NCBI GenBank assembly: GCA_951406725.2
Contig: OX597838.1
Span: 26,908,001-26,972,000, forward strand
Reading direction: 5' to 3'
Length of the DNA stretch: 64,000 nt
DNA from: Octopus vulgaris
Taxonomy: Eukaryota
Part shown: piece by piece, positions 26,933 to 62,690 of the stretch
How the letters are laid out: each line of letters opens with the position of its first letter
How positions within the stretch are numbered: position 1 is the first letter of the stretch
The notes under the pieces: generated by a model
What the model saw: only the letters and a program-made list of their open reading frames with translations
Told to the model about the DNA's origin: nothing
Databases searched by the model: none
Position numbers and translations under genes: made by a program

Positions 26933-27020
26933 TTCACCTGATGAAAACAGGGTTTTTTTTGCATGATGTAACATTTCTGTTCATCAATTAAAAAAACATG
27001 CTTGAAACAGCTGTAGTGAA
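26933..27020 (+). ncRNA. Minimal type I hammerhead ribozyme motif
   Basis: ttcac-CTGATGA(26938-44)-long stem II-GAAA(27004-07)-C-AGCT-GTA^gtgaa. Stem I is ttcac/gtgaa; stem III ACAGCTGT is a perfect palindrome. Confidence 0.75.
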
Positions 27021-41340: not shown

Positions 41341-42897
41341 TATTCTACTTTTTTGTATATATTTCTTCCTATCTCAAAAACACAAGACATACTACTGTTC
41401 CCACGTGTGAACAATATAGTACTTTTGAAACAGAACGCAAAAGATTTCGGTCTTATGTCTTGTGAGTTTTTCTCTCACCATTGAACGAGTGCCGAATTAA
41501 CCATTAAATAATATAAACACGTGTTTAGGAAAACCAAAGAAATTAAACTGAGTTTCCCCCCACAGCCGAATTTACTATGCAACTTTATGGCAAATGAATT
41601 TTGTTTTTTAATGAATTAAGTGTTGAAAATTTGCAGTTTCTTCTTGCCTCTGTTATCAAAGAAATAATTCATGTTCAGTGCTTATATTTCGGGTTAAATA
41701 AATATAATAAAGCGCATTATATCTAACATAGTTGTAGGTCTGACACGAAGAGAAAACAATTTTTAATCTATTATTTCATAACACTAAGTCCTTTTATGCG
41801 TTTAAAGTGTTGTCAGATACACAAATGAAGGGTCATTGAGGGGATGCCATTATCGGGGCCGGACTTAAGGCCTCGGTTGGCCTTGATCCAGCTCTACCTT
41901 ACACTCAACAGCTATGGGGCTTGTAGTTTCTCCTGCAACACTGCACGAAGAAAAAAAAGGGAAAATGCGGATAAAGGGGACGGTAAAAAGTTACTTGATG
42001 CAGACGCATGGCAATTCACACATCATGTGTAATTGCTTGGTTGACTTGAAACAACACAAAACACAGCTGCAGGGTGAAGACAGAGAAGAGAGAAGGGAGT
42101 CAACAACGAACGGGGAGATTCACTATCGCAAAAAATAAATAGACATGGTTTTATATTTATTATTATTATTATTTCATTTACACTTAACAAGGTAATTTGG
42201 TATTCTGTGAACAACGAACGAAATCTATTTGAATGTTTCAAAATGTTCTTTGTGAGTAATTTGTTTACTTATATGTAGTGGACAGACAGGCTGAATATGA
42301 AGGAACTTTTGTGACAAACTATTCTTGGAAGGTGGTTAATCTTGTTAAATAAACGTAAGCTCTGAGTCATACACGTAAGGTGACAAACTATTTTGCTTTT
42401 CTTCGCTGTTTTTTTGTGTTATTAAAGCATATTAATTCTCTATAATAACTCCAATGAATGAATGGATTTGTGTGAGAATGTTTAACATACATAGCAACAG
42501 ACTACGAAGGACAACACAAACTTCAAATTATATATATACCTACATATATAGATTACACATAATCAATACAGGGAGGTTTTCAGTTAATGACACGGAGATA
42601 CAAGGCAGTCTCATTACCTGGCAGTATCCGTAAAACAATTTAGTTACTATAAAATAATGAGCAGGTGTGGCTGAATTCAGTATAAGTTTAAATGTTTATT
42701 TTTCGCAAACTGTCAAATTTACTAAGGATATTTTGCGTGAAAATTTCAGATATGTACATTTATTACACAGAGATTTATTAATGCGTTCAGAGATTTATTA
42801 ATATATGTATTGTAACCTGTAAAAAAAAATGTCCAGTAGCATGTGCATATGTATGAATATTTAAGATAAATAAATGTCAGCTAGTTCTGGGACTTAC

Positions 42898-43521
42898 CAT
42901 TTCATCGAGGGACTTCAAATCACAGGTAATAATCTGTTTCCTGGGAGGTGGTGGTTCACCGGCTAGTTCTGCTTCGATTTCTTCTTCCATTTGTACAATT
43001 GTGGGGGCCAGCATGCCAAACTTGGCACCAACCCGAGCCACTTCCAATAAGCAGAGAACCACACTTCGTTCATTTTTTCGTAAAACCAAATCATCGGTTT
43101 CGAACCTGAGAACCTCCGGTATTCCCAGTTCTCGACACCACGATATAAAGTTAGACACATTATCTCTGGCCTGAAAAGTCTGTGCTTTCACCTCTTTACG
43201 AAATTGAATCTCAGTTTGAGGAATATCACGTATGAACTGAGATTTGGTAGAGAGTCTCTTTTGTTGGTCCAGGGCGAATTTTCGGACTTCGTTCGCATGC
43301 TTACACAATTCGACCCCGGTCTCTAAGATTTCGAAGAAATTATCTACGTTGATGGACTTTTTATAGAGACAGGTAAACCAGTCTGCCAGATCTTCCTTCA
43401 TGGCATAAAGATACTCATCTTTGCTTTTAAATGGTTTGAAAGACTTGGGTTCCAGAATCAGGATGGTCTCTGTGCTACCAGAGCCTGGGTTCGGGGACGG
43501 ATATGTATCGGTGCTCTCCAT
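42898..43521 (-). CDS. First coding exon (208 codons) of a GAS2/GAS2-like protein (calponin-homology domain)
   Basis: ORF contains GAS2-family motifs (PFKSKDEYLYAMKEDLADW, ETGVELCKHAN, FQARDNVSNFISWCRELGIPEVLRFETDDLVLRKNERSVVLCLLEVAR, APTIVQMEEEIE). Start context is gccATGg. The frame runs into a canonical donor ATG|GTAAGT (42897-42892, phase 0) just after DLKSLDEM. The paralogue (GAS2L1/L2/pigs-like) cannot be assigned. Confidence 0.95.
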
Positions 43522-48206: not shown

Positions 48207-48258
<52 letters not shown>

Positions 48259-48322
48259 CATTTTTCATTTTCATTTTATCTAGTTTCAGCTCACGAGCTG
48301 TGGCCATGCTGGGGCACCGCCA

Positions 48323-48381
<59 letters not shown>

Positions 48382-48608
48382 CAAAAATCTGCAGATAGCA
48401 ATAATAGTTATTTAGCTATGTTTCAGCCCAGTTCAGCGAACCTTGGAATTAAGACGTTCTAGTCGTGACCATCTCGTTTATTTATTATTCTTTTTCCATA
48501 CATACATACACATACATACATTATACATATATATATATATATATTCATTTTTCGTTTTCATTTTATCTAGTTTCAGCTCACGAGCTGTGGCCATGCTGGG
48601 GCACCGCC

Positions 48609-48672
<64 letters not shown>

Positions 48673-48785
48673 CAAAAATCTGCAGATAGCAATAATAGTT
48701 ATTTAGCTACGTTTCAACCCAGTTCAGCGAACCTTGGAATTAAGACGTTCTAGTCGTGACCATCTCATTTATTTATTATTCTTTT
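48200..48785. repeat. Direct tandem duplication, unit about 290 bp
   Basis: ttttatctagtttcagctcacgagctgtggcc...gcaaaaatctgcagatagc...gtcgtgaccatctc occurs twice with about 4 substitutions. Confidence 0.9.
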
Positions 48786-57637: not shown

Positions 57638-58118
57638 AGGTTGGCAGAATCGTTAGCACACCGGGCGAAATGCTTAGCGGTATTTCGTCTGCCGCTACGT
57701 TCTGAGTTCAAATTCCGCCGAGGATTAAATAAGTATCAGTTACGCACTGGGGTCGATGTAATCGACTTAATCCGTTTGTCTGTTCTTGTTTGTCCCTTCT
57801 GTGTTTAGCCCCTTGTGGGTGGTAAAGAAATAGGTATTTTGCCTGCCGCTACGTTCTGAGTTCAAATTCCGCCGAGATCGACTTTGCCTTTCATCCTTTC
57901 AGGGTCGATTAAATAAGTACCAGTTACGCACTGGGGTCGATGTAATCGACTTGATCCGTTTGTCTGTTCTTGTTTGTCCCTTCTGTGTTTAGCCCCTTGT
58001 GGGTGGTAAAGAAATAGGTATTTTGCCTGCCGCTACGTTCTGAGTTCAAATTCCGCCGAGGTTGACTTTGCCTTCCATCCTTTCAGGGTCGATTAAATAA
58101 GTACCAGTTATGCACTAG
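57638..58118 (+). mobile_element. Family B SINE tandem multimer (about 2.5 units)
   Basis: Body ggtattt..ctgccgctacgttctgagttcaaattccgccgag starts three times. Confidence 0.9.
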
Positions 58119-60218: not shown

Positions 60219-60397
60219 TAATAATAATGATCCTTTCTACTGTAGGCACAAGGCCTGAAATTTTGGGGAAAGGGGTTGGTCGATTATATCAACCCCAGTG
60301 CTCAACTGGTACTTATTTCATTGACTGAAAGGAAGAAAGCCAAAGTCGACCTCAGCAGAATTTGAACACAGAATATAAAAACAGATGAAATGCTGCT
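59920..60397 (-). mobile_element. Two family C SINEs
   Basis: Motif match; the second is cut at 60397 by the satellite. Confidence 0.8.
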
Positions 60398-60812
60398 GGA
60401 AGTTCCGAGGACTTCATGGAAAGTTCCGGGGATGGGGAATACCTGGAAAATTCCATGGATAGAGACTTCCTGGAAAGTTCTGAGGACTTCCTTGAAATTT
60501 CCGAGGATGGGGAACTCCTGGAAAGTTCCATGGAAAGGAAGTTCCGATGACTTCATGGAAAGCTCTGGGGATGAGAAAGTTCTGAGGATGAAATTCCTGG
60601 AAAATTTCGAGGACTTCCTGGAAAGTTCAGGGGGATAAGAAACTTCCAGAAAAGTTCTGAAGATGAGACTTCCTGGAAAATTCCGATGAATTCCTGGAAA
60701 GTTCCGAGGATTTCCTTACAAAGGTCCGAGGATGAGGAAATTCCTGGAAAGTTCTGAGAATGGGATACTTCCTGGAAAGTTCTGAGGATGAGAGACTTCC
60801 TGGAAAGTTCCA
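60398..60812. repeat. Degenerate satellite, core gacttcctggaaagttc(c/t)gaggatg
   Basis: Variable units of about 19-30 bp; TTCCTGGAA occurs 8 times. Confidence 0.9.
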
Positions 60813-62035: not shown

Positions 62036-62470
62036 AGGTGTATTATGAGCATTTATAGAACACAGTCCTATATACAGTCAATAAACAATTAAAAATGGAG
62101 AAGGGAAGATGTTAGAAGTTTGATAACCTTTTAATCCATGCATACGATTCGTGCTACTGGAGACATGTAACCCAATACAACTTGTTGCGTGGTGAGGCTG
62201 TCAGTGACAGCTATCCTACCAGACTCATACATACGTATGTATGTATAAGTCTGAGAATCATTAAAAATTGATTAACGAACTCTACTTTTCCAACCAATGG
62301 AACTGTAAAAAATCTATCAAGAAAAAATATAATGTATAAATTATATAAAATAAATCTTTCACACAGATGTGTATTTAATGAAAAACACACACACATAAAT
62401 GTGTGTATATATACACATGTATATATATCCATCATTTTTTGCTAAAATGTCTTATTGACAAGTTTCGCTT

Positions 62471-62569
62471 TTTTCACTTTCCTGAGGAGAAGATTGCATT
62501 GTTTATACCATTTGTTTATACTTTTGAATAGTATCAGTGGAATTTTCGAAACATGTGTCGAAAGTAAAA
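62471..62569 (+). ncRNA. Minimal type I hammerhead ribozyme motif
   Basis: actttc-CTGAGGA(62482-88)-stem II gaagattgcattg/cagtggaattttc-GAAA(62548-51)-C-ATGT-GTC^gaaagt. Stem I is actttc/gaaagt. Confidence 0.8.
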
Positions 62570-62690
62570 ATATTTGATTACACCTGCATTAAACTCCATT
62601 TATTTATTCATATATACACACATATATATATATATATACACACACATATATATATACACACATATATATGCATGCATACATATACGTGTG

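Follow-up and report, generated by a model that had tools for sequence, protein, structure and literature searches.

Hammerhead ribozymes in Penelope-like elements (PLEs) and Hydra elements of octopus are both already published. According to Craig et al. 2021 (PMC8557442 / bioRxiv 2021.04.23.441226), the Hydra clade displays a DKT motif, an endonuclease without CCHH, a CxCX5C linker, a length of <3 kb, insertion at (TA)n and hammerheads, while the function of PLE hammerheads is called unclear. These ribozymes have been reported to cleave weakly and as dimers (Cervera and De la Pena 2014, PMC4209133; see also the review PMC6765202). The hammerhead of PAc, a Poseidon element of Anolis, is protein-assisted and dispensable for insertion in vitro, with two start sites for reverse transcription (PMC11167929). 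The core change U4C considerably lowers hammerhead activity in vitro, yet it permits viroid infectivity (PMC3088659). The accessible part of an octopus repeat annotation (PMC13282606) mentions neither ribozymes nor Hydra.

The window, a 64-kb stretch of the Octopus vulgaris genome (contig OX597838.1), carries one such motif on the forward strand. The catalytic box CUGAGGA (C3–A9, with the ancestral U4 state) lies at 62482–62488, G10.1 at 62489, C11.1 at 62547, the GAAA box at 62548–62551 and the GUC triplet at 62557–62559, so that the hammerhead consensus predicts a cut at 62559/62560; every core position given in the preliminary description holds in the sequence and in a strict motif scan. 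The arms of stem I (62476–62481 and 62560–62565) form 6 Watson-Crick pairs, in line with the at least 6 bp proposed, and 4–5 more pairs are possible past one mismatch (62471–62474 and 62567–62570); the stem is open-ended. The long stem II with a single mismatch was likewise recovered: within the helix II domain (62489–62547; 59 nt here, 55 nt in siblings) the basal helix has 12 pairs, two of them G.U, which a G.G mismatch divides into runs of 7 and 5, and it runs on into an apical helix. The GAAA box and the self-complementary helix III region ACAUGUGU (62551–62558) together span 62548–62558, a predicted dimer interface. The motif thus has the boxes CUGAnGA, GAAA and NUH and the three helices of a type I hammerhead core. 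The adjective minimal, also used in the preliminary description, applies less well, since in the sense of Cervera 2014 it denotes a hammerhead with no helix III insert, while helix III here comprises 2 bp and a palindromic loop.

The strict scan returned only the 62482 site in the window, as compared to 0.005 matches per window in 200 dinucleotide-shuffled versions, and none in the 200 when a stem II of at least 4 bp was required. A looser match at 26938–27015 (+), with a 5-bp stem I and a 2-bp stem II, is probably due to chance. When the 62482 motif is folded in isolation, the hammerhead-competent structure lies 0.7 kcal/mol above the minimum free energy (MFE), with pair probabilities of about 0.9 for stems I and II; the folding z-score is -3.15 for the helix II domain and -1.28 for the 111-nt stretch around the motif. 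The Rfam search that had been proposed as a check gave no hammerhead match to the motif, neither at the gathering score nor at E<=10, only microsatellite-driven miRNA noise, a failure probably due to models that do not allow a helix II of 55–59 nt; such a match is not a biochemical requirement for a hammerhead.

The motif sits within a 183-bp sequence (62427–62609, +), 95% identical to the sibling copy L006, which represents the 5'-truncated 3' end, or pseudo-LTR (pLTR) fragment, of a PLE. Its end lies 50 nt past the cleavage site, coincides with the more frequent of the family's two 3' ends, and is followed at the 3' junction by a (TA)n/(CA) microsatellite (62610–62684), the insertion target of the family; (TA)-rich sequence is also found 5' of 62427. 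At 62514–62520, in the apical part of helix II, one substitution and 4 extra bases repeating the upstream TTGTTTATAC are private to this copy, being absent from the 30 siblings compared. The 183 bp hold no ORF remnant, and no second element piece, partner ribozyme or PLE protein match was found in the window and the next 10 kb (74 kb). Open ORFs remain only in subfamilies other than that of the window copy. A large coding exon at 42880–43521, with a Met start at 43521 and a calponin-homology (CH) domain (Pfam E 5e-14), lies on the reverse strand; we take it to be GAS2-like. Because it has neither an ORF nor a partner ribozyme, and because the CH-domain exon is on the opposite strand, the window copy is probably inert and not an active element. 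The preliminary description was therefore right to read a terminal repeat of a ribozyme-bearing retroelement, which the architecture of the relatives identifies as the pLTR of a hammerhead-bearing PLE, while its suggestion that the copy is possibly still active does not hold for a 183-bp piece that retains nothing of the ORF and has no second copy within 74 kb. Elsewhere in the window we observed a degenerate tandem array on a GGAACTTCCTGGAAAGTTCCGAGGA-like palindromic unit (60396–60811, periods 21–97) and two recent tandem duplications of SINE-like and microsatellite sequence, with units of 291 bp at 95% (48209–48785) and 184 bp at 97% (57723–58116).

A 211-bp query of the 2.8-Gb genome gave 1,946 first-look candidates, 40 of which were scored and are 91–98% identical to the query, the window itself excepted. 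The relatives share a common 3' end and extend to variable points in the 5' direction. The long copies (L033 and L099 among them) are organised as pLTR-ORF-pLTR, often with an additional inverted truncated copy; hammerheads occur in both pLTRs, 2,842–3,137 nt apart in 8 loci, which corresponds to a unit of about 2.86 kb. The single ORF between the pLTRs would encode a reverse transcriptase (RT) together with a GIY-YIG-type endonuclease at the C-terminus, domain assignments that, like that of the family to PLEs, come from motifs and homology; Pfam gave no significant RT or GIY-YIG match in the family ORFs. Frames of 778 codons are open in 3 of 150 scored matches, and in full copies the upstream hammerhead is followed after about 320 nt by the first Met. 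The 3' end is followed by (TA)n in 69 of 76 cases, and 3' ends cluster at about 50 nt (68 of 143 copies) and about 200 nt (41 of 143) past the cut site. The relatives thereby display the traits of PLEs with a C-terminal endonuclease: pLTRs from partial tandems, inverted 5'-truncated copies, a 3' tail and a hammerhead in the pLTR. No tandem non-coding arrays of the window-type pLTR were found among 110 insertion sites. Contigs from four runs guessed to be RNA cover 25–29 of 30 element bins and show neither ends nor strand.

Sister ORFs, chosen by RT similarity, have a hammerhead downstream in 9 of 11 cases, the other 2 being interrupted before the pLTR; the invariance of the core in 11 of 11 is partly circular, as the motif itself was used to locate it. 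In the sister subfamilies L102–L112 we observed frames of 785–934 codons with long Asn-rich linkers in place of the zinc finger, and several of them combine G10.1-U11.1 and a GUA triplet with a retained U4. A different PLE at L035:7494–9746 (-), with DKG and a CxxC inside the GIY-YIG motif, adjoins two Hydra-type insertions; PLEs cluster at (TA)n sites. A retrozyme-like array was also noticed at L114:5775–7644 (G000:C1:10836774–10838643), and again at L115: it comprises four head-to-tail units of 594 bp, each with a type I hammerhead, a 70-nt helix II and the ACGUACGU palindrome, and ends in (TA)n. No PLE ORF was found near the L114 array, and its helix II contains a splice-donor-like GGTAAG.

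The protein of the window family has DKT and YRDD and no CxxC between GIY and YIG; its endonuclease lacks the CCHH motif. All five lineage proteins are devoid of the CxCX5C linker and have an Asn-rich stretch in its place. Among 85 homologs, 74 have DKT/S, 83 YRDD and 71 the CxC linker, and all 14 lacking the linker are shorter than 650 aa. Over 700 aa, the family protein shares 33% identity with that of L113, a linker-bearing element of the same genome whose sequence, when compared by eye, closely matches Hydra-1_Obim. It is nested among linker-bearing homologs in a midpoint-rooted tree of unlabelled homologs that covers no other PLE clades. Judged on these sequence features, the lineage is Hydra-derived and not a strict Hydra member, one defining feature, the CxCX5C linker, being missing.

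A pattern for hammerheads with a long helix II (25–70 nt between the boxes) matches 5,985 times in the genome and its reversed control once. The unusual length of stem II pointed out in the preliminary description is therefore real, and it characterises the entire lineage rather than the window copy in particular. Seventy-seven distinct helix II sequences fall into 21 clusters of 47–70 nt, the length bounds shutting out short helix II forms from the pattern and the clusters alike; the median folding z is -1.9, and 10 of the 21 clusters have z<-2. In 22 aligned copies, 86% of the helix cells are paired, as compared to 42–50% in slid controls, and double changes occupy 34 cells against 16.7+-3.1 after shuffling, a value that none of 500 shuffles reaches. 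The number of pairs with double changes in these 22 related copies is 7, which does not exceed the shuffles (406 of 500 reach 7). The helices are supported by covariation across relatives; a search for genomic copies and covariation, as had been advised, thus gave thousands of relatives whose arms covary by double-change cells, not by pair count. The expectation that copies would conserve the core better than its flanks was not borne out among 48 sites within the family, selected without the motif: rare changes affect 5 of 524 core cells and 47 of 8,405 other cells (p=0.23), the pattern to be expected if inserted copies decay neutrally. Subfamilies compared with one another retain the core while their arms covary.

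Helix III in a monomer is unfavourable (+1.7 kcal/mol). Full pairing of ACAUGUGU with a second copy, as put forward earlier, was reproduced at 8 of 8 positions with two G.U pairs (-7.4 kcal/mol), but an off-register duplex of 6 Watson-Crick pairs is almost as stable (-6.8 kcal/mol) and is the one present in the cofold MFE. The ACAUAUGU dimer duplex reaches -8.4 to -9.0 kcal/mol and has no off-register rival. With flanks of at least 30 nt, stem I is predicted to be absent from the window copy and three siblings (mean probability 0.00–0.28), and in a fourth relative its probability is low (0.11) at every flank length; helix II, unlike stem I, is predicted to be stable in its natural context.

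Exact patterns of the lineage gave 416 matches with CUGA and 518 with CCGA (U4C), a few of the latter belonging to sister subfamilies; U4C, U11.1 and GUA occur together in 180 matches. The mean pairwise distance outside the ribozyme decreases from 6.8% for CUGAAGA (10 sites) and 3.3% for CUGAGGA (51 sites) to 2.2% for CCGA/C/GUC (9 sites) and 1.5% for CCGA/U/GUA (19 sites), in a series from 110 insertion sites that excludes 21 falling into small or odd classes, and the three intact ORFs are all in the youngest class. A tree on the full ORF shows the same ladder with shrinking tips and a root among the CUGA copies, root support being weak (26–74); outgroups agree with the CUGA group at 10 sites and with the young group at 6, while 13 sites carry no information. 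An initial tree, built from the last 1 kb, placed the root at the youngest copies, against a CUGA-first order, and was read as long-branch attraction, the outgroups being 30% away. The age order from CUGA to CCGA draws mostly on the divergence levels and on the presence of U4 in sister subfamilies.

The same change is found in a second, linker-bearing Hydra family (L113:2627–4606, L187–L196, G000 C17 and C1) with 4,893 pattern matches, where CCGA is present in 99 of the 100 matches listed; this family has 717-codon open frames in tandem and U11.1, and the sole listed copy with U4 keeps C11.1. Some of its copies are 0.4–0.7% apart and possibly still active. Our analysis suggests that both U4C lineages spread with a ribozyme that was likely weakened, not necessarily dead. 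A stronger reading, that the ribozyme of the young copies is dead, was softened, as GUA and G10.1-U11.1 also accompany U4 in the sister subfamilies L104–L109; the change of C11.1 to U is of the CpG type and may be mutational. Tentatively, and at rather less than even probability, two unrelated and recently successful Hydra-type lineages could have convergently detuned their hammerheads (U4C with G10.1-U11.1) and then produced hundreds to thousands of copies. If true, this would mean selection for cleavage that is weaker or gated by protein, and octopus DNA would offer a dated natural allelic series for testing the role of the PLE ribozyme.

Altogether, we consider it probable that the window carries a type I hammerhead belonging to the terminal repeat of a Hydra-derived PLE, that this short truncated copy is likely inert, and that full elements perform a predicted slow, assisted cutting of their RNA. 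The element would be transcribed from the upstream pLTR; its ribozyme would be off by default and would cut after N17 when the two pLTR motifs pair through the palindromic helix III, probably with the help of the element's protein, releasing a unit-length RNA. The RT/endonuclease would nick (TA)n and reverse transcription would proceed from one of the two internal sites, at the window locus halting after about 183 nt. A ribozyme that is off by default fits both the weak dimer cleavage of PLE hammerheads and the protein-assisted, insertion-dispensable ribozyme of PAc. Since the younger U4C subfamilies still spread, cleavage is probably a modulating rather than an essential step. Less likely, though a serious rival, is that the fold persists chiefly as a signal for protein binding or RT start, the long helix II serving as the arm that is bound, cleavage being vestigial and the core free to drift to U4C. 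Such a role would agree with the fixation of U4C in 518 lineage matches and 99 of 100 listed matches of the second family, with a helix II but not a stem I that is predicted stable in context, with the position of both 3' ends downstream of the motif and with the normal insertion of PAc ribozyme mutants in vitro; against it, all other core positions are fixed in the young U4C subfamilies, the palindromes of helix III and the NUH triplets persist from family to family, and the viroid infectivity that U4C supports means that cleavage need not be abolished.

The remaining explanations concern the window copy itself. Its intact core and an isolated fold within 0.7 kcal/mol of the MFE would be compatible with a motif that was co-opted or still cuts a host RNA such as a non-coding or read-through transcript, but it has no partner in 74 kb, an off-register dimer competes, stem I is predicted to be lost in context, the copy carries private changes and the sole coding exon identified in the window runs on the other strand, which makes this very unlikely. 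Even less probable is that the motif is the monomer of a non-LTR retrozyme, tandem, non-coding and forming circular RNA: type I architecture and a palindromic helix III are shared, and a different family of the same genome does form 594-bp tandem arrays, but the relatives extend into an RT-endonuclease ORF at variable 5' truncation points, show the inverted pairs typical of PLEs and form no tandem non-coding arrays at the 110 insertion sites. A mere chance match to the hammerhead consensus, with which the Rfam miss and the modest z-score of the 111-nt stretch would agree, has next to no probability given none in 200 shuffles, 5,985 genomic matches against 1 and a fixed position in pLTRs. We retain the Penelope-like end repeat as the preferred reading.

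Hammerheads in PLE pseudo-LTRs being known, the window locus itself is ordinary. In the literature we found neither the present lineage nor its long helix II described, nor any PLE with U4C, although Lunse 2017 and Arkhipova 2017 may list such variants. Motif searches miss such ribozymes: Rfam gave no hit, and more than 5,000 CCGA matches would escape a descriptor that insists on CUGAnGA. The lineage resembles the Hydra clade of Craig 2021 in DKT, lack of CCHH, a single ORF, a unit of <3 kb, (TA)n, the pLTR hammerhead and tandem and inverted copies. It differs in its tail (about 150 nt versus 30–40 bp), in its helix II (about 55 nt versus about 25 nt or less in the Hydra hammerheads of the supplement) and in the U4C of young copies, which is in none of the Hydra hammerheads listed there; long arms are not unprecedented, as one plant PLE in that supplement has a long loop 2. 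The Hydra clade has the CxCX5C linker and the present lineage does not, yet (TA)n targeting persists, a loss that tests, and would speak against, the published suggestion of a link between this linker and targeting. With the metazoan PLE hammerheads of PMC4209133 the lineage shares type I architecture, G10.1-C11.1, a short palindromic helix III and a prevalence of solo truncated copies with some opposite-strand pairs. In that paper a helix II of 7–8 bp is larger than usual, whereas 12 basal pairs and an apical helix are found here; here no unpaired base separates A9 from G10.1, and the core variant is U4C instead of U3-A8. Non-LTR retrozymes (PMC7229834; bioRxiv 10.64898/2026.07.22.740005) have the type I hammerhead and dimer-type helix III in common with it, but are tandem non-coding arrays, whereas the present family is autonomous and dispersed. 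PAc (PMC11167929) is similar in its pLTR hammerhead, two preferred 3' ends and AT-rich target; it belongs to a different clade, and its ORF starts inside the ribozyme and not about 320 nt downstream. Two families whose core change is predicted to weaken self-cutting would allow testing whether the elements need their ribozyme, and with its age-ordered series from CUGA to CCGA and a second family that has undergone this change as well, the octopus genome provides an in vivo counterpart to the in vitro result on PAc.
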